A DNA stretch of 64,000 nucleotides, from contig CAVYJM010000018.1 of the NCBI GenBank assembly GCA_963768855.1, forward strand, positions 32,001 through 96,000, in the 5' to 3' direction. The notes under the pieces were generated by a model, which saw only the letters and a list, made by a program, of their open reading frames with translations, was not told the origin of the DNA and did no database searches. The translations under genes and the position numbers were made by a program. Source of the DNA: an uncultured Thermoplasmata archaeon. GTDB taxonomy: Archaea; Thermoplasmatota; Thermoplasmata; RBG-16-68-12. Shown one piece after another: positions 29,449 to 36,458 of the stretch (within the stretch, counting starts at the first letter, position 1; each line of letters opens with the position of its first letter).

Positions 29449-30447
29449 TCAGGTGAACATCCGGCGTACGTCCCGGCCGACCGTCTCGAGCCTCGAATCG
29501 GGCTCCTGCTTGCGGGCCTTCGTCAGCGTAGGCATGCCGTTCTCGTACTCCGAGCGCCAGTCCCGGGCAAACGCGCCCGACTTGATATCCTTAAGCAAGG
29601 CTTCCATGTTCTTCCGGACCCGCTCGTCGATGACCTTGGGGCCGCGGGTGCGGCCTCCGTACTCCGCCGTGTTCGAGACATTCGCCCACATGTTCTCGAT
29701 GCCGCCCGCCTGGACGAGGTCGACGATCATCTTGAGCTCATGGAGGACCTCGAAGTACGCGAGCTCGGGCTGGTAGCCCGCGTCGATGAGCACGCGGAAG
29801 GAGGTCTTGATCAGCTCGGCCATGCCACCGCAGAGGTCGGCCTGCTCGCCGAACAGGTCTGTCTCCGTCTCTTCCGTGAAGGTCGTCTCGATCACGCCGA
29901 CCTTCGTCGAACCGATCGCCTTGCCGATCGCGAGGGCGGTCTCCCGCGCACGTCCGGAGGCATCCTGGTGGATCGCGAGGAGGGCCGGCACGCCGGAACC
30001 GCGCAGGAAGTTCGAGCGGACCGCGGCGCCCGGGGCTTTCGGCGCGATCATGATCACGTCGAGGTCCTTCCGTTGGACGATCGTCCCATACCGGATGTTG
30101 AACCCGTGCGCGAACTCGAGGGTGGATCCCTTCGTCAGGTTCGGGGCGACGTCCTTCGCGTAGACTTCGGGCTGGACCTCGTCCGGGATGAGCATCATTG
30201 TCACGTCGGCAGACGAGACGGCCTCCGGGACCGGGGCGACCTCGAGGCCGTCCTTGGACGCCGCGTTCCACGACTCTCCCTTCGCGCGTGCGCCGACGAC
30301 GACCTCCACGCCGCTGTCGTGCAGGTTGAGCGCCTGCGCACGCCCCTGAATCCCGTATCCCAGCACAGCGATCCGCTTTCCTTCCAGCGGCTTGAGACTC
30401 GCATCCTTCTCGTAGTAGAGTTTCGCCATCGTATCCGACTCCGTCAC
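29449..30447 (-). CDS. ilvC: Ketol-acid reductoisomerase
   Basis: LGYGIQG, APKAPG, ETETDLFGEQ, SNTAEYG. Confidence 0.96.
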   Translation of the reverse strand: MTESDTMAKLYYEKDASLKPLEGKRIAVLGYGIQGRAQALNLHDSGVEVVVGARAKGESWNAASKDGLEVAPVPEAVSSADVTMMLIPDEVQPEVYAKDVAPNLTKGSTLEFAHGFNIRYGTIVQRKDLDVIMIAPKAPGAAVRSNFLRGSGVPALLAIHQDASGRARETALAIGKAIGSTKVGVIETTFTEETETDLFGEQADLCGGMAELIKTSFRVLIDAGYQPELAYFEVLHELKMIVDLVQAGGIENMWANVSNTAEYGGRTRGPKVIDERVRKNMEALLKDIKSGAFARDWRSEYENGMPTLTKARKQEPDSRLETVGRDVRRMFT

Positions 30448-30800
30448 ATCGCCCCGTACGCGCGCACGTACGTGGCGCCGTCCTCGTGAGAAACCTCGGG
30501 GTCCACCTGGTCCGGCTTCCCGGACAGGGGCCTCCGTCCCTGGACGGACCGCAAGAGGACGAACTCCTCCGCGTTGTTCTCGATGTATTCGACCTCGATC
30601 ACGTCATGCACGCGCCGCAGGTGCTCGACCATGCGCGGGAACTTGGGGTCGGCGGACGCCAGCAGGACGCGTGCGCAGCCGTCCTTCTCGCACGGTCCGG
30701 CGAGGACCGAGTCGATCGAGATCCGCTTGCGCGTGAACACGGCGGTGATCCGCTGCATCACGCCCCAGTCGTTATGGACGAGCAGGGATAGCACTTGCAA
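30444..30800 (-). CDS. ilvH: Acetolactate synthase small (ACT) subunit, short divergent form
   Basis: LLVHNDWGVMQRITAVFTRKRISIDS; GGAGGTGA SD before TTG; lies between ilvB and ilvC. Confidence 0.75.
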   Translation of the reverse strand: MQVLSLLVHNDWGVMQRITAVFTRKRISIDSVLAGPCEKDGCARVLLASADPKFPRMVEHLRRVHDVIEVEYIENNAEEFVLLRSVQGRRPLSGKPDQVDPEVSHEDGATYVRAYGAM

Positions 30801-32496
30801 CCGTCTCACCTCCTTTCCAGATACATCGGGGCCCCAGGATCACTTCCTTCGCGCTCTTCCCCGGGGGCATGATCGGGAGGATGTCCTCGTTCGGGTCGAT
30901 CGTCACGTCGATCAGGAAGGGGACTTCCGCCGCCTTGGCCCGCTCGATCGCGTCCGGGATCTCCGAGTTCCGCTCCACGTGGACGGCCTCGCAGGCGTAC
31001 GCCTCCGCGATCTTCGTGAAGTCGGGAATCTTGCCGAGGTTTACGGCGGAGAACCGCTGTCCGTAGAACATCCGCTGCCACTGGAGCACCATCCCCAGCG
31101 CGCCGTCGTTCATGACGAGGACCGCGATGTTGATGCCGTTCTCCCGGGCCGTGGCGAACTCCTTCATCGTCATCTGGAGGGAGCCGTCCCCCGCGAGGTC
31201 CATGACGAACCGGTCCGGCACCGCGACCTTCGCGCCGATCGCCGCGGGGAACCCGAAGCCCATCGTTCCGAGCCCGCCCGAGGTCAGATAGGAGCGCTTG
31301 CCGCGGACCTCGAAGAAGTGCTCGGCCCACATCTGGTTGCGGCCGACCTCCGTCGTGAGGACCGCGTCGTCGGGCAGCAGGCGGTTCAGCTCCCACACGA
31401 TCTTCTGTGGGAGGATCGGGGTCCCGGAGAAGTTGAAGTCGCACGCGCACTCCTTCTTCAGGGCGCGGACGCGCTCCAGCCAAGCGGTGTGGTCCTTCCG
31501 GACCCGGCGCTCCAGTCCCGCGATGAGCGCGTTCGTCACGGTGTACACGTCGCCGACGAGCCCGACGACGTTGGGGACATTCTTCCCGACCTCCGAGGAG
31601 TCGATGTCGACGTGGACGATCCGCTGCTGTTTCCCGAACTCGCTCAGCTTTCCCGTCGAGCGGTCCGAGAACCGCGTGCCCAGTGCGATGATCGTGTCGC
31701 AGTTGTTCAGGACGTAGGTGGCCACCATCTTCCCGTGCATGCCGACGGGGCCTAGCACGAGGGGATGATCTTCCGCAACGGAGCCCTTGCCCATCAGGGT
31801 CGTGACGACGGGCGCCTGGATCATCTCCGCGAGCCGCAGGATGTCCGACCCGGCCGTGGACCAGCGCGCGCCTCCGCCCACCATGATGACGGGCGCCTCG
31901 GCCTCCTCGATGAACTTGATCGCGTCGAGAAGGCGGGAGAGCTCCTTGCGGGGGCCGCGGCGGCGGGGCACGTGCACGGCCTTGACCGCGGACTCGGGCA
32001 CGTCCGCGTTCTGGATGTCCACGGGAAGATCGATGTGGACCGGAGCGTAGCGGCCGTGGGACGCGACATGGAACGCCTCGCGGAAGACGCGGGGCACCTC
32101 CTCGGGTTCTTCGATCCGCCAGTTGTGCTTCACGATGGGCATCATCAGGCCGAACGTGTCGACCTCCTGGAACGAGTCGTTCCCCATCACGGCGGTCGCG
32201 ACCTGGCCCGTGATCGCGACCATGGGTGAGGAGTCCATGTAGGCCGTCGCGATGCCCGTGATCAGGTTCGTCGCGCCGGGCCCGGAGGTCGCGATGCACA
32301 CGCCCGGCTTCTTCAGGATCCGCGCGTAACCGTCGGCCATGTGGGCCGCGTTCTGTTCGTGGCGGCAGAGGATGTGCCGCAGCCCCGAGGAATAGAGCTC
32401 GTCGTACAGGGGGAGGACCGCGCCGCCGGGGTGGCCGAAGACCACGTCGACGCCCTGCTCCTTCAGCGTGTCCACCGCGATTCGAGCACCTCTCAT
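30772..32496 (-). CDS. ilvB: Acetolactate synthase large subunit
   Basis: FGHPGGAVLPLY, RHEQ, TSGPGATN, GDGS TPP motif. Confidence 0.96.
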   Translation of the reverse strand: MRGARIAVDTLKEQGVDVVFGHPGGAVLPLYDELYSSGLRHILCRHEQNAAHMADGYARILKKPGVCIATSGPGATNLITGIATAYMDSSPMVAITGQVATAVMGNDSFQEVDTFGLMMPIVKHNWRIEEPEEVPRVFREAFHVASHGRYAPVHIDLPVDIQNADVPESAVKAVHVPRRRGPRKELSRLLDAIKFIEEAEAPVIMVGGGARWSTAGSDILRLAEMIQAPVVTTLMGKGSVAEDHPLVLGPVGMHGKMVATYVLNNCDTIIALGTRFSDRSTGKLSEFGKQQRIVHVDIDSSEVGKNVPNVVGLVGDVYTVTNALIAGLERRVRKDHTAWLERVRALKKECACDFNFSGTPILPQKIVWELNRLLPDDAVLTTEVGRNQMWAEHFFEVRGKRSYLTSGGLGTMGFGFPAAIGAKVAVPDRFVMDLAGDGSLQMTMKEFATARENGINIAVLVMNDGALGMVLQWQRMFYGQRFSAVNLGKIPDFTKIAEAYACEAVHVERNSEIPDAIERAKAAEVPFLIDVTIDPNEDILPIMPPGKSAKEVILGPRCIWKGGETVASAIPARP

Positions 32497-32499
32497 GAG

Positions 32500-32645
32500 A
32501 TCCCACCAACAAAGCAGGCCGCCAGGGCCTCCTCGTTTCGAGGCCCTAGCGACCCTGGGCCCGCGGCCTTTTTCGGATACACACCGGGGCACGGTGCGCC
32601 GCGGGCGACTTGAGCACGACGTAGGACTTGGCGAACGCTATTTAA
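32500..32645 (-). promoter_or_regulatory. Internal promoter (TTAAATA 32645-32639) and structured leader with 23-codon uORF (VLKSPAAHRAPVCIRKRPRAQGR, 32617..32546)
   Basis: GTG 28 nt below the TATA; TAG in the 5' arm of hairpin GCTAGGGCCTC/GAGGCCCTGGC; then GGCCTGCTTTGTT-GGTGG-ATG. Confidence 0.55.
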
Positions 32646-33624
32646 CATTTGCCGACACCGACTCCGTCAATTGCCGAACATTCCCGACACCCGCCGAAAC
32701 GGGCTCCCGCACGGGGGTGAGCCATCCGCGGTAGCGCGGGTCCTCGCCCCGGACCGCGGTGAAGAAACCCCGCTGGATCTCGAGCGTCACGGGGCCGGCA
32801 TGGCCCGGACCGACCGCGTGCCAGTCCACCTCCCGCACGGGTGTGACCTCCGCGGCGGTCCCCGTGAGGAAGAGCTCGTCCGCCGCATAGAGATCCGAGC
32901 GGGAGAGGGGCGCCTCCCGCACCTCGTATCCCAGGTCCGCGGCGATCCGCAGGACCGAATCACGGGTGATCCCGGGGAGGAGGTCTTCCGATCCCGGCGG
33001 CGTGACGACCGTTTCGCCTGAGACGACGAACACGTTCTCGCCGGTCCCCTCCGCGACGCGGCCCGCGTCGTTGAACAGGATCGCCTCGTCGAACCCGGCA
33101 CGCATGGCTTCCTGGAAGGCGAGGCACGCGTTGACGTAATTCCCCGCGAGCTTCGCCGCGCTCGGCACGCTGTTCGAGGGCGTCTTGAGCCACGAGACGG
33201 TCTTCACGCGGATCCCGCGGCGCATCCCCTCCTCGCCGAGGTACGCGCCCCACGGCCACACGGCGACCGCGACGTGGACCGCGTTGTCTCGCAAGGAGAA
33301 GTTCATCCCGCCCAAGCCGTAGAACGCCACGGGGCGGACGTACCCTTCCTCGAGGCCGTTGCGAGCCACGACCTCGCGGCACGCCTCGGCGAGTTCGTCG
33401 GGCCCGTAGGGCAGGTCCATGTAGAGGTACGACGCGCTCCGATAGAAGCGCGCGAGATGGTCCTCGAGGCGGAACACCGCGGGGCCGTCCGCGGTCCGGT
33501 AGCACCGCATCCCCTCGAAGAGGCCGGTGCCGTAGTGCAGCCCGTGCGACAAGACGTGGACCTTCGCCTCGTCCCAGGGCACGTAGCGCCCGTCCATCCA
33601 GATGACGTCCGTCTTCGGCGGCAT
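32638..33624 (-). CDS. ilvE: Branched-chain amino acid aminotransferase
   Basis: LHYGTGLFEG, AKLAGNY, EGTGEN, LPGITR, GTAAE. Confidence 0.95.
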   Translation of the reverse strand: MPPKTDVIWMDGRYVPWDEAKVHVLSHGLHYGTGLFEGMRCYRTADGPAVFRLEDHLARFYRSASYLYMDLPYGPDELAEACREVVARNGLEEGYVRPVAFYGLGGMNFSLRDNAVHVAVAVWPWGAYLGEEGMRRGIRVKTVSWLKTPSNSVPSAAKLAGNYVNACLAFQEAMRAGFDEAILFNDAGRVAEGTGENVFVVSGETVVTPPGSEDLLPGITRDSVLRIAADLGYEVREAPLSRSDLYAADELFLTGTAAEVTPVREVDWHAVGPGHAGPVTLEIQRGFFTAVRGEDPRYRGWLTPVREPVSAGVGNVRQLTESVSANVK

Positions 33625-33637
33625 GCGATCGTTCCGC

Positions 33638-33796
33638 TCAGGCTGTCTCGTCCAAGAGGGGCGCGAAGTAATCCATGTACTCGCGCGTGAAGGACGTCAC
33701 GACCCCTCGCGGCATCGCGTTCGGCTTCGCTCGGCTCACAGGGTCCGCCTGTTCGCGGGCCGGGTCACTCGGGAGAGTCTTCGCTCTGACCACCAT
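33638..33796 (-). CDS. 52-aa hypothetical protein between leader and ilvE
   Basis: GTGG SD-like site before ATG; helical-looking C-term FTREYMDYFAPLLDETA. Confidence 0.45.
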   Translation of the reverse strand: MVVRAKTLPSDPAREQADPVSRAKPNAMPRGVVTSFTREYMDYFAPLLDETA

Positions 33797-33842
33797 CGAA
33801 CCACAAAACCTGTGCAGGCAGCGGATCGAGGCGGTCGTGCGT

Positions 33843-33896
33843 CTAGCACAACCGCTTCGTAAGCACAATAACCAGGAGAATCTGGTGGTGCTGCAT
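33843..33896 (-). CDS. Candidate ilv leader peptide MQHHQILLVIVLTKRLC
   Basis: ATG about 33 nt below TTATA box; seven consecutive I/L/V codons; stop in loop of 10-bp hairpin 33831-33855. Confidence 0.75.
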   Translation of the reverse strand: MQHHQILLVIVLTKRLC

Positions 33897-33960
33897 CCTG
33901 CGGGGGCGCCCAAAGCGGCGTGGGTATAATTATCTTTCGTCCAAGGCGATTTATTTCGCG

Positions 33961-34935
33961 CTACGACGTGACAATCGAAAAGTGCGGACCTCGATTCTTC
34001 ACCAAAGCCCGAATCGGGAGCGAGTTGTCAACGACCGACGTGAAGGCGTTGGCGCTCGCTCCGTCCGACGCGAACGCATCCCGCATCGCCTTGGCGGAAT
34101 GCTCAGCGGCCTGCCTCGTGCTAGCAAGGGCGAAGACCGTGGAACCGGAGCCGCTGATCGCGAACCCGGTGGCGCCCGCGTCGAGGGCGGCGCGTCTCGC
34201 ATTTTGGTACCCACGCAGAAGGGGGGATCGCGCCGGTTCGGCAAAACGATCCTCCAGGCAGCGACCTGCCAAGACGGCCTCCCCGCGCACCAGAGCGAGC
34301 GCGAGGGTCGAGGCCTTGCCCACGTTCGAGACCGCATCTTCCAGGGAGACCTGGCGGGGCAGGACCTTGCGCATGTCCGCGGTCTTCAGGACGAAGTCGG
34401 GGACGGCGATCGCGAGGTGAATCCGCGAGCTCACCGCCTCGCGTGCGAGGACGAACGGTTCCGCGGATGCGATCGTCACGAATCCGCCGAACAAGGCTCC
34501 CGCAATGTTGTCGTAGTGGCGTCCGGAAACCGCGGCCTCCCCCGCGGCCGCGCCCCGGAGGAACCCCGCGACTCCGATGCGCTTCGATTCCGAAGGAAAC
34601 GCCTCGAGGAAGGCGAGGGCGGCCGCGGCGCAGGAGGCTGCGGAGCTTCCGAGACCCCGCGCCGCCGGTATCCCCTTGCGCACCCGGACGGAGAGGTGCG
34701 TGCGGACGTGCGTGGCCTGCCGGAGGGCTTCGAGAACGATGCCCGCGGTGTTCTCGCCGAACCGCGCGGGGACGGTCCCCGCCCCGGGGCCCTCGACGGA
34801 CAGCGAATCCTCGTCCGCCTCCCGGATCGATACGGTGTCGGTCGGGCCGCGGATCGCGAGACAGAACACGTCGAATCCGGGTCCGACGTTGGCAATCGTG
34901 GCGGGGGCGCGCGCGGTCGTCCAGCCGGCAGCCAT
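33961..34935 (-). CDS. thrB: Homoserine kinase
   Basis: PATIANVGPGFD, PAARGLGSSAA, HYDN, ISGSGST. Confidence 0.93.
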   Translation of the reverse strand: MAAGWTTARAPATIANVGPGFDVFCLAIRGPTDTVSIREADEDSLSVEGPGAGTVPARFGENTAGIVLEALRQATHVRTHLSVRVRKGIPAARGLGSSAASCAAAALAFLEAFPSESKRIGVAGFLRGAAAGEAAVSGRHYDNIAGALFGGFVTIASAEPFVLAREAVSSRIHLAIAVPDFVLKTADMRKVLPRQVSLEDAVSNVGKASTLALALVRGEAVLAGRCLEDRFAEPARSPLLRGYQNARRAALDAGATGFAISGSGSTVFALASTRQAAEHSAKAMRDAFASDGASANAFTSVVDNSLPIRALVKNRGPHFSIVTS

Positions 34936-34945
34936 GCGGGGGTCC

Positions 34946-35224
34946 TCAGCCCCCGGCAATGGCGGGGAGCAAATCAACCGTTGCGTCCCGCGGGACCGGG
35001 GTCTCGAGGCCGCCCAGGTACCGGGTGTCTTCACCGTTCACGTAGACGTTCACGAACCGCTTGAGCGCGCCGTTGCCGTCGAAGATCCGCGCGCGGAATC
35101 CGTCGCCGTACCGCTTCGCGACCTCGTCAAACAGCTGCCCCACGGTCCCCTCGAACTCGAGGCTGATCTCCCGCTCGCCGCGGGTTGCCGTCGCGATCGG
35201 GGACGCCAGCACCAACTTAACCAA
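34946..35224 (-). CDS. MoaD/ThiS/SAMP ubiquitin-like sulfur carrier
   Basis: FVNVYVNGED...LLPAIAGG C-terminal diglycine; GGAGGTG SD before TTG. Confidence 0.9.
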   Translation of the reverse strand: MVKLVLASPIATATRGEREISLEFEGTVGQLFDEVAKRYGDGFRARIFDGNGALKRFVNVYVNGEDTRYLGGLETPVPRDATVDLLPAIAGG

Positions 35225-36458
35225 GGGTTGCACCTCCTAGGAATCGATCGACTGCCGCAGAATCGGGAGCCACAGGAGTGAGCTCGGGCAGGACGCCGTT
35301 CCACACCGCCGGCGCCTTGAGCCCGTTCCCCGTGATCAGGAGCACGACGCGCTCGCCGCGGTCGATCCGCCCGTCCTCCACCGCGCGCCTCAGGGTGGCC
35401 ACGGTAGTCCCGCCCGCGGGCTCCGCGAAGACGCCCTCCGTTCGGGCGAGGAGCCTCTGGCCCTCGAGGATCTGCTCGTCCTGCGGAGCGTCTGCGAAGC
35501 CGCGCGTGCGGCGCATGATCTGGATCGCCTCGAAGCCCGACGCGGGATCGCCGATCGCCAGGGATTCGGCGATCGTCGCGGGCCGTTTGACCGGCTGCGG
35601 GCGCCCGTCCTTCGCCTCGAAGCCGCGAACGATCGGCGCGCATCCCTCGGGCTGGGAGCCGACGATGCGGGTCTGGCCGTCGTCCACCTGGCCCAGGTCC
35701 CTCAGCTCGTGGATGGCCTTGTCCACGGCCGTCAGGAGGAGGCCGGAGCCCATGGGCACGACGACGACATCGGGCAGCTCGAAGCCGAGCTGTTCCCACG
35801 TCTCGAACAGGAGGGTCTTGGATCCCTCCGCGTAGTAGGGCCGGAGGTTGATGTTCACGAAACCCCAGCCGCGCCGGTCCGCGGCGATCAGGGCGACGCG
35901 GTTCGCGTCGTCGTACGTCCCGTCCACGGGAACGACCGTGGCGCCGTACAAGCGGGGGAGGAGGAGCTTCGTGGGCTCCAGGTGCGCGGAGGCGAACACG
36001 TAGCAGGGGAGGCGAGCCTTGGCCGCCGCGGCCGCCGTCGCGGCGGCGAGGTTCCCCGTCGACGCGCATCCGACTGCGGGCAGCCCCCACTCGCGCGCCT
36101 TCGCAATCGCAACGGCCACGGGCCGGTCCTTGAAGGAGTACGTCGGGTTCACGGTGTCATCCTTGACCCAGACCTCCCGCAGGCCCAGGGCCTCCGCCAG
36201 GTTCTCCGCGCGGCGGAGCGGCGTGTAGCCGGGCTGGAGATCGACGCGGCTCGCCTTGTCGAAGACGGGGAGGAGCTCGTGGTAGCGCCAGAGATCCTGG
36301 GATCGATGCGCGAGGGCGTCGCGGGTGAAGGCCTCCTTGACCGCCTCGATCTCGTAGCGGACCTCGAGGGGCCCGAAACACGCGTCGCAGACGACGAGCT
36401 TGGTCGGCGGATACTCGGTACCGCATTCACGACAGCGCAATCCGCGGACGTAGCCCAT
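35217..36458 (-). CDS. Threonine synthase-like PLP enzyme (second paralogue; possible sulfur-carrier-dependent synthase)
   Basis: NPTYSFKDRP, CASTGNL, NINLRPYYAEGSKT, PMGSG, EPAGG. Confidence 0.85.
   Translation of the reverse strand: MGYVRGLRCRECGTEYPPTKLVVCDACFGPLEVRYEIEAVKEAFTRDALAHRSQDLWRYHELLPVFDKASRVDLQPGYTPLRRAENLAEALGLREVWVKDDTVNPTYSFKDRPVAVAIAKAREWGLPAVGCASTGNLAAATAAAAAKARLPCYVFASAHLEPTKLLLPRLYGATVVPVDGTYDDANRVALIAADRRGWGFVNINLRPYYAEGSKTLLFETWEQLGFELPDVVVVPMGSGLLLTAVDKAIHELRDLGQVDDGQTRIVGSQPEGCAPIVRGFEAKDGRPQPVKRPATIAESLAIGDPASGFEAIQIMRRTRGFADAPQDEQILEGQRLLARTEGVFAEPAGGTTVATLRRAVEDGRIDRGERVVLLITGNGLKAPAVWNGVLPELTPVAPDSAAVDRFLGGATLG

Follow-up and report, generated by a model that had tools for sequence, protein, structure and literature searches.

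A putative Ile/Leu/Val-rich leader peptide gene within a predicted bistable RNA ahead of a branched-chain amino acid biosynthesis locus in a Thermoplasmata archaeon

A short region on the minus strand of contig CAVYJM010000018.1 from an uncultured Thermoplasmata archaeon (positions 32,001–96,000 were analysed, and this whole stretch of 64,000 nucleotides is called the window) separates the homoserine kinase gene thrB from genes by which branched-chain amino acids (BCAA) are made. The region very probably contains, at the 5' end of the transcript, a translated leader peptide gene rich in isoleucine, leucine and valine (ILV) codons, embedded in a bistable RNA and placed before a small open reading frame (ORF), orfX, and ilvE-ilvBNC, or before orfX alone in some relatives. 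Comparison with related sequences supports one part of this in particular, namely that a conserved ILV-rich ORF, its composition specific to one reading frame, precedes an archaeal BCAA biosynthesis operon.

The leader ORF and its conservation

The features on which the coding argument depends are as follows (BRE, TFB-recognition element).

33843–33896, minus strand: leader ORF (upstream ORF, uORF) encoding MQHHQILLVIVLTKRLC, 17 codons plus TAG, with its ATG at 33896 and TAG at 33845–33843
33934–33924, minus strand: GATAATTATAC box
33925–33939, minus strand: BRE/TATA-like box CGAAAGATAATTATA, within a 64-nt spacer and nearly invariant in all loci
33638–33796, minus strand: orfX, an ORF of 51 or 52 amino acids starting at GUG 33793 (the only start common to all relatives) or AUG 33796, its stop 13 nt before ilvE

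An earlier interpretation made from the letters of the window, called the sequence-only reading here, had pointed to a box, a leader ORF, a hairpin and a T tract, and each is present on the minus strand where it was placed. The ORF has seven consecutive ILV codons at positions 6–12 (33881–33861: ATT CTC CTG GTT ATT GTG CTT), and four of the seven end in T. T-ending codons of this kind had been described as uncommon in this DNA, and the genome bears this out – in a crude set of its long ORFs, ATT, CTT and GTT account for 11.5% of Ile, 18.6% of Leu and 15.3% of Val codons, respectively, and overall GC content is 65.9%. Among the leaders, ATT makes up 75% of the Ile codons and CTT 61% of the Leu codons, and Ile occupies ~12% of all leader codons versus ~3% in the genome's long ORFs. 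AUU and CUU can be decoded solely by the genome's tRNA-Ile(GAU) and tRNA-Leu(GAG), through G:U wobble.

Twenty-eight distinct versions of the uORF were collected from 11 genomes of one Thermoplasmata genus and from metagenomes, and the AUG is invariant in all of them. The uORF has 17 codons, or 16 in one clade through a single 3-nt deletion, which is the only indel. The stop codon always falls within the loop of a hairpin, P3, described below; it is TAG everywhere except in locus L123, the only one with TAA. Each leader has 4–8 I, L or V codons among its 16–17. Over codons 6–11, T has frequencies of 0.02, 0.71 and 0.26 at the first, second and third codon positions, and the share of I/L/V is 68% in frame versus 20% and 1% in the other two frames. 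In the 21 versions that were tabulated, Leu12 is invariant (CTT in 20, CTC in 1), codon 10 is always I, L or V and is Ile in 16, and Ile, Leu or Thr occupies codon 13. Where versions differ at the ILV positions, the substitution is either synonymous (ATT/ATC, GTA/GTC/GTT) or exchanges one I/L/V residue for another, and codons 2–5 vary freely.

These patterns bear on the possibility that the hydrophobic 17-amino-acid peptide is functional in itself, for example as a membrane peptide, with the RNA folds incidental. Its hydrophobicity and conserved length would suit such a role, but its N-terminal third and several of its core positions vary, with only the I/L/V class kept, and the ORF is strictly linked to the ilv locus and to covarying helices. 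We regard this explanation as very improbable.

The end of the TATA box is 28–30 nt from the uORF ATG in 22 of 22 loci with a matched box. Given the usual geometry of archaeal promoters, so constant a distance predicts a 5' untranslated region (UTR) of a few nucleotides and therefore a near-leaderless uORF. A genome-wide histogram of TATA-to-start distances is too sparse to place the transcription start site (TSS). A genome-wide scan found 53 short ORFs 22–33 nt behind a TATA-like box, and the leader is the sole ILV-rich one.

Two Cys-rich short ORFs also stand behind TATA-like boxes in the genome: MFCTANNEARRSLADCCLAVCCR (G000, contig C6 near 1054880, minus strand) and MTVCCSRTGC (contig C17 near 20421, plus strand). 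The ORFs downstream of both have no obvious link to cysteine genes, as judged by eye and with no family search. At the locus itself there is a further A/T-rich box, CGAAAT(A/T)AATC (33948–33958, minus strand), ~9 nt upstream of the BRE/TATA-like box and directly after the thrB stop. It appears in alignments of most orthologous loci and may be a second or alternative TATA-like box or a regulator site.

The sequence-only reading had suggested looking upstream of ilvE in relatives for ILV-rich uORFs with covarying stems, and this search was productive. Six orthologous loci were found with IlvE as the query (69–91% identity), and all six carry the uORF. Counting all 15 loci found without the leader as bait, the uORF is present in 14 – seven of seven found through ilvE and seven of eight found through orfX homologues. 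In the exception among the orfX-found loci (L124), the sequence changes right at the orfX start, at the border between two tiers (S2 and S1) of the hairpin S described below, and either a rearrangement or an assembly chimera would account for the break.

When a pattern scan and a covariance model were applied to 79 genomes of the order, the leader turned up in 11 of the 38 that belong to the genus and in none of the 41 others. The covariance model gave only two weak chance matches, both inside coding regions, among 151 genomes sampled from the class. Scanning metagenomes with the pattern added ~28 leader loci, but the pattern required the P3 sequence and TAG, and in these loci the invariance of both is by construction; the unbiased set consists of the ilvE-derived loci and the 8 fetched through orfX homologues. 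Loci L033, L035, L036, L045, L048, L063, L066, L077 and L078 were false positives of the pattern scan and were discarded.

Within the genus, 10 of 11 genomes with an orthologous ilvB have the leader. G057 (locus L100) is the lone genome with such an ilvB but without leader and orfX; there thrB is followed directly by ilvB, with a promoter-like box. Orthologous biosynthetic ilvB occurs in 11 of the 38 genus genomes, and a second IlvE paralogue (36–41% identity) in nearly all of them. From this gene content, most members of the genus may be auxotrophic for BCAA, with a transaminase retained for salvage or catabolism.

Two predicted RNA folds that exclude each other

The leader region can adopt two folds, built from the following elements (SD, Shine–Dalgarno sequence).

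33893–33901, minus strand: 5' strand of helix P1, GCAGGAUGC, which holds the uORF AUG
33814–33822, minus strand: 3' strand of P1, GCUGCCUGC, which doubles as part of tiers S3 and S4 of hairpin S
33862–33892, minus strand: P2, a two-tier hairpin inside the uORF (codons 2–12), predicted for each sequence separately with a mean z of -2.2
33831–33855, minus strand: P3, the stop-codon hairpin of 10 bp, GCGGTTGTGC / TAGAC / GCACGACCGC
33805–33808, minus strand: U4 tract, which follows the 3' strand of P1 by a few nucleotides, single-stranded in the junction and a bulge inside S
33788–33836, minus strand: hairpin S, the alternative fold of ~16 bp, with predicted energies between -22 and -27 kcal/mol in all 28 sequences

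A 156-nt region of the locus folds more stably than shuffled sequences (z = -3.95). In the first fold, P1, P2 and P3 form a three-way junction which leaves the U4 tract and the SD and start of orfX single-stranded. P1 pairs (C)CAGGAUG(CG) with (CG)CAUCCUG(G) ~85 nt downstream. Nearly every sequence is predicted to form P2, whose register shifts between clades and whose pairs differ among them (GGCCAAG/CUUGGCC, GGACA/UGUCC, GCACA/UGUGC). P3 has codons 15–17 as its 5' arm and UAGAC as its loop, in keeping with the sequence-only reading, which had put the stop codon in the loop of a hairpin at 33855–33831. RNAalifold run on 21 sequences returns P1 together with P3, and over the 28 sequences 94% of cells are paired for P1 and 92% for P3. 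Over the cores of both helices the figure is 93%, with double changes at two pairs only. P3 is nearly invariant, with one compensatory change from G-C to U-A in 3 sequences. The sequence-only reading included neither P1, whose long-range pairing holds the AUG, nor P2, which covaries and lies within the uORF.

The second fold is hairpin S. From its base it has the tiers S1 (GACCGCC:GGUGGUC), S2 (UCGA:UCGA), S3 (variable, 4–5 bp) and S4 (CCU:AGG), with a UUU bulge. S1 uses the lower 3' arm of P3, and S3 and S4 use the 3' strand of P1, so S excludes P1 and full P3. It buries the SD and start of orfX and the U4 tract and frees the uORF AUG, which is the reverse of the junction. The sequence-only reading had proposed that the 3' arm of P3 can instead pair with the region where ribosomes bind for the next ORF, close to a TTTT tract. 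The tract (33808–33805) and the adjoining GTGGTTCG (33804–33797) are as it described, and a partner does exist in that region, but the register it gave, CGACCGC with GTGGT(T)CG, is wrong: the conserved pairing is of GACCGCC plus UCGA (33836–33826) with UCGA plus GGUGGUC (33799–33788).

Covariation is present in both folds. S3 alternates among CCGC/GUGG, CUCA/UGAG, UCCA/UGGA and AUCC/GGAU. When the strands of each sequence were paired with their own partners and with permuted ones, own partners were more stable for P1 (-15.8 versus -13.5 kcal/mol), P2 (-12.5 versus -9.1) and S3 (-4.3 versus -2.8). None of 5000 permutations matched the own partners for any of the three, versus 92 and 4495 of 5000 for two controls; the sequences are related, and the test overstates their independence. 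The AUG within P1 is fixed while the bases opposite it change (CAU, CGU, CGC, CUG, CUU), and it is therefore kept for itself and not for the pairing.

The folds also differ in when they can form. When the transcript is truncated directly behind the U tract, 27 of 28 sequences form the junction. At full length S is more stable by roughly 5–10 kcal/mol, the upper end of this gap being overstated, since the junction was scored with an unfolded 3' tail; the minimum free energy structures of individual sequences are the junction in 7 of 21 and S in most others. The estimated barrier on a direct path from junction to S averages 15.6 kcal/mol (range 7–29). In these models the element has the makings of a kinetic switch, bistable, with the fold decided by occupancy of the uORF at the moment the 3' strand of P1 emerges. 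A combination of P1 with a pseudoknotted S1/S2 is topologically possible.

Such an architecture might belong to a riboswitch-like or protein-binding RNA, with the junction as sensor, S as expression platform and no sensing role for the short ORF. Typical of riboswitches are the conserved joining strands of the junction, the covariation of P2 and the presence of a rival hairpin that covers an SD; the core helices are conserved in sequence, and P1 hides the AUG in the junction fold. This reading leaves unexplained the 3-nt periodicity of U, the frame-specific ILV coding and the bias to wobble codons, as well as the invariant AUG opposite variable partners, the change from TAG to TAA and the indel of 3 nt. 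There is no Rfam family match either: cmscan of 33400–34200 against Rfam, with E up to 10, gave only chance-level matches (symR, Sphinx_1) and no leader family. We consider a riboswitch or protein-binding RNA quite unlikely.

Two other structural candidates were set aside. A scan for bacterial-type terminators flags only the inner hairpin of P2, because the ILV codons provide Ts, and this hairpin is not conserved as a terminator. A downstream 'segment 4' able to pair with the start region of orfX was sought by eye, and none was seen.

Ribosome position and the sign of control

The effect of a ribosome on the choice of fold was modelled by forcing a 27-nt footprint to be unpaired and computing the mean unpaired probability of GGUGGUC. 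This sequence resembles the SD before ilvB (GGUGGGAUC) and contains the GUG start common to all orfX genes. The probabilities were:

No ribosome: 0.24
A-site at codons 6–10: 0.05–0.18
A-site at codons 11–13: 0.00–0.02
Ribosome at the stop codon: 0.26

Extending the context to ~310 nt gives 0.12 for the free RNA, 0.01–0.13 for stalled states and 0.23 for the ribosome at the stop codon. In these models, a ribosome parked on the ILV codons (6–13) favours S and leaves the orfX start more paired. Stalling has this effect because the junction is held together by P1 and P2, and both are lost when a ribosome sits anywhere on the uORF. At the best conserved ILV codons (10, 12 and 13) the ribosome also reaches the lower stem of P3 and frees GACCGCC. 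Long-range pairing of the leader with the ilvE start was rejected, the accessibility of the ilvE initiation region being 0.36–0.41 in all leader states. If control is purely translational, the link from stall to S means that ILV shortage lowers translation of orfX. For a biosynthetic operon that would be the wrong direction, unless orfX acts negatively. Control may be of either sign and may act at termination or at translation.

In its purely translational version, the sequence-only reading has attenuation of the canonical sign, in which an early stall keeps P3 and leaves the orfX start free (ON), and a ribosome that runs through to the stop codon melts P3 and allows S to form and trap the RNA (OFF). 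Several observations suit it: the exchange of an arm between P3 and S1 is real, S1 and lower P3 are nearly equal in energy, the sign is that expected for a biosynthetic operon, and footprints at A-site codons 6–10 leave the start 50–70% unpaired in several sequences (L002, L003, L052, L006). The footprint-constrained folding runs counter to it, however, as the averaged stalled states are more paired than both the free and the stop-codon states, and likewise in the longer context. On ILV codons 10, 12 and 13 the ribosome has its leading edge on the lower stem of P3, one that has reached the stop codon covers part of the anti-start arm itself, and P1 and the U4 tract have no part in the scheme. 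We judge it unlikely.

The opposite sign of translational control would have orfX, and ilvE where it is coupled, translated when charged ILV tRNA is plentiful and shut off by a stall. The start would be exposed by the junction once the uORF is cleared, or S would be opened by terminating ribosomes, and orfX would be a small protein that restrains or modulates BCAA synthesis. Taken at face value, the constraint folding and the order in which the folds form kinetically both point this way. The leader's constant partner is orfX, not ilvE. orfX always follows the leader, ahead of ilvE-ilvBNC or of ilvBNC; the leader and orfX are followed by ilvB-ilvN-ilvC without ilvE in L051, L070 (G018 and G047 types) and L124, and gene calls on two short contigs (L126, L128) show no ilvE-sized gene beside orfX, which suggests the same arrangement there. 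ilvB has a promoter-like box of its own.

The 34 homologues of orfX, one of which NCBI lists under 'Thermoplasmata archaeon', are all hypothetical or unnamed proteins, and no match was found in Pfam, NCBIfam or the ESM Atlas. It has the signs of a coding sequence, with one conserved Arg encoded as CGC, CGA or AGG and indels in threes, and its C-terminal motif PFSREY(L/M)DYW.PL is kept. An AlphaFold2 (AF2) model shows a disordered chain with one C-terminal helix at low confidence (predicted local distance difference test, pLDDT, of 64), so that orfX may resemble a short binding peptide, disordered with one conserved helix. It might serve for coupling or, as a small protein, modulate BCAA synthesis. 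Opposite-sign control would give orfX a conjectural role and leaves the U4 tract unexplained, and in L121 and L122, where the gap between ilvE and ilvB is 42 nt, it would turn the whole biosynthetic operon off under ILV shortage, which would be maladaptive. For these reasons opposite-sign control, too, seems improbable.

Three further elements lie within orfX. A GC-rich hairpin (GCCCGC...GCGGGC type, ~33741–33763, minus strand) appears by eye to covary between clades (GGCCC/GGGCC, GUCCC/GGGAC), an invariant GUGAGC follows it (33734–33739, minus strand), and just past the orfX start there is a small GNRA-type hairpin (GAGU-GAAA-ACUC in relatives).

The choice of fold probably depends on ribosome occupancy of the uORF while the 3' half of the leader is transcribed, and hence on how much charged Ile, Leu and Val tRNA is available. 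The explanation that we favour places the decision at termination. When ILV is ample, the pioneer ribosome would clear the uORF quickly and P1 would close the junction, and the U4 tract exposed 3' of P1 would act as a termination signal, either intrinsic or through aCPSF1/FttA (OFF). With ILV short, a ribosome stalled on codons 6–13 would block P1 and lower P3; S would form instead, with both the U4 tract and the 3' strand of P1 hidden in it, and transcription would continue (ON). On the read-through mRNA, ribosomes that complete the uORF would open the orfX start, since the stop codon of the uORF is 6 nt from the base of S. No conserved feature is left out of this termination model and its sign is the expected one, and we infer every step of it. 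Taken as a whole, it stands a little on the doubtful side of even.

Several observations fit a role for the U tract. It is UUUU in 22 of 28 sequences (UUCU in 4, CUUU in 1, UUU in 1) and lies 0–6 nt after the 3' strand of P1. TTTT is rare in the genome, at a rate of 0.00064 per position, and is enriched 3–4 fold at 10–30 nt after the stops of long ORFs, and the genome encodes a protein with an aCPSF1/FttA-type KH domain. In Methanococcus (M. maripaludis), aCPSF1 binds U4 tracts in transcripts and sets the efficiency of termination, and the rules of termination differ between archaea and bacteria (PMC8716108).

A number of points weigh against this model. The most invariant pairing, S1, targets the SD and start of orfX, as if translational control were the feature selected. 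The U tract is degenerate in 6 of the 28 sequences. S requires sequence 3' of the U tract, so it can only block termination that acts after the tract has emerged. To our knowledge, it is not established that archaeal RNA polymerase terminates in response to RNA structure. Where relatives have a promoter-like box before ilvB, the leader may control only orfX, with or without ilvE, which weakens the argument from biosynthesis. The energies are nearest-neighbour estimates without tertiary terms, pseudoknots or real ribosome geometry, and for early stalls the values fall within the model's error of either fold. Soil metatranscriptome contigs of relatives (85–95% identity) are uninformative on TSS, 3' ends and expression level; one of them spans the promoter region, which could reflect read-through from thrB or carry-over of DNA.

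Neighbouring genes and comparison with known systems

On the minus strand the gene order is threonine synthase, a ThiS-like ORF, homoserine kinase (ending at 33961), the 64-nt spacer, uORF, orfX, ilvE, ilvB, ilvN and ilvC. The ilv genes are:

32638–33624, minus strand: ilvE, branched-chain aminotransferase, with Pfam and NCBIfam equivalog matches above cut-off
30772–32592, minus strand: ilvB, biosynthetic type, with Pfam and NCBIfam equivalog matches above cut-off
30444–30809, minus strand: ilvN, short, with a profile match under its cut-offs
29449–30447, minus strand: ilvC, with Pfam and NCBIfam equivalog matches above cut-off

A promoter-like box, TCGGCAA(A/G)(T/C)GTTAAATAG, is found at the end of ilvE, upstream of ilvB (32636–32660, minus strand). 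The same box precedes ilvB in G057 (L100:1409–1430) and lies ~300 nt downstream of the leader in L032. The spacer in L070 holds a palindrome and a GTTAAATAG promoter-like box, and in G047-type loci the palindrome, GACATC...GATGTC, precedes the box. The 5' UTR of ilvB, ~110 nt, contains GC-rich hairpins and its SD. From these features, ilvBNC may have a second, separately regulated promoter.

Upstream of the leader, the ThiS/MoaD-like ORF of 92–95 amino acids (34946–35233, minus strand) lies between the threonine synthase-like PALP gene and homoserine kinase. It is kept in relatives (L121:1429–1707, L127:1577–1855), and a sulfur-carrier-type protein is unexpected in a threonine cluster.

Leader-peptide attenuation is a textbook form of bacterial control that depends on coupled transcription and translation. 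We know of little about regulation of archaeal amino acid operons at the RNA level, and no archaeal leader-peptide attenuator was found in the published full texts that were searched, whose coverage is incomplete. The locus described here might be an archaea-native attenuator sensed by the ribosome, in which a near-leaderless ILV leader sets the kinetic choice between junction and hairpin and so exposes the U4 tract to aCPSF1/FttA or hides it, with orfX as the first regulated product and perhaps a modulator of BCAA synthesis. We put this forward tentatively, as a possibility that is more doubtful than likely. The locus is a compact and richly conserved test case, which combines a defined uORF, a U4 tract and a defined start downstream with two folds in which compensatory variants occur naturally. 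It makes testable whether archaeal ribosomes report amino acid supply to the transcript, whether RNA structure gates archaeal termination, and what role orfX has. It also indicates that unannotated genes of 17 codons can be found through comparative signals alone.

Translational coupling through long-range structure is known from erm leader attenuation and from the coat-replicase interaction of MS2. In the models presented here, as in those systems, the position of an upstream ribosome would decide whether a downstream start is paired, with the uORF stop 6 nt from the base of S. The proposed signal is amino acid supply and not an antibiotic or coat translation, and the host is an archaeon.

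In mycobacteria, leaderless poly-Cys short ORFs are Cys-responsive translational attenuators (Canestrari et al., 10.1101/834739). The present leader is similar in being, as proposed, a sensory short ORF at the predicted 5' end of a polycistronic mRNA, with cognate codons as the sensor. The stalled ribosome in mycobacteria blocks the sequestering duplex, whereas the stall modelled here favours it. Also unlike the mycobacterial type, the anti-start strand here (33836–33826) is 3' of the uORF stop, and an additional fold hides the uORF start.

The nearest likeness is to the BCAA attenuators of bacteria. In E. coli, ilvL (ilvGMEDA) and ivbL (ilvBN) are leader-peptide transcription attenuators of BCAA operons. 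Others are the leader-peptide attenuator of ilvBNC in Corynebacterium glutamicum (PMC11857589) and the leucine-rich attenuator peptide of Staphylococcus aureus (PMC5794164). The locus in the window shares with these a short ORF of cognate I/L/V codons directly upstream of ilv biosynthesis genes, which overlaps mutually exclusive helices and has its stop beside or inside a hairpin, with a U tract after a helix. The traits by which a leader attenuator is recognised are found here as a cognate-codon ORF, its conservation in frame, and exclusive structures that shift, in the folding models, under footprint constraints. The differences are as marked as the similarities. The host is an archaeon, and the uORF, predicted to be almost leaderless, follows a BRE/TATA-type promoter. 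The 'terminator' would be a helix closing a junction with only U4 after it, in place of a local hairpin with a U run. The competing fold is downstream of the uORF stop and buries the SD and start of the next ORF, and in one of the two folds the AUG of the uORF is itself base-paired.

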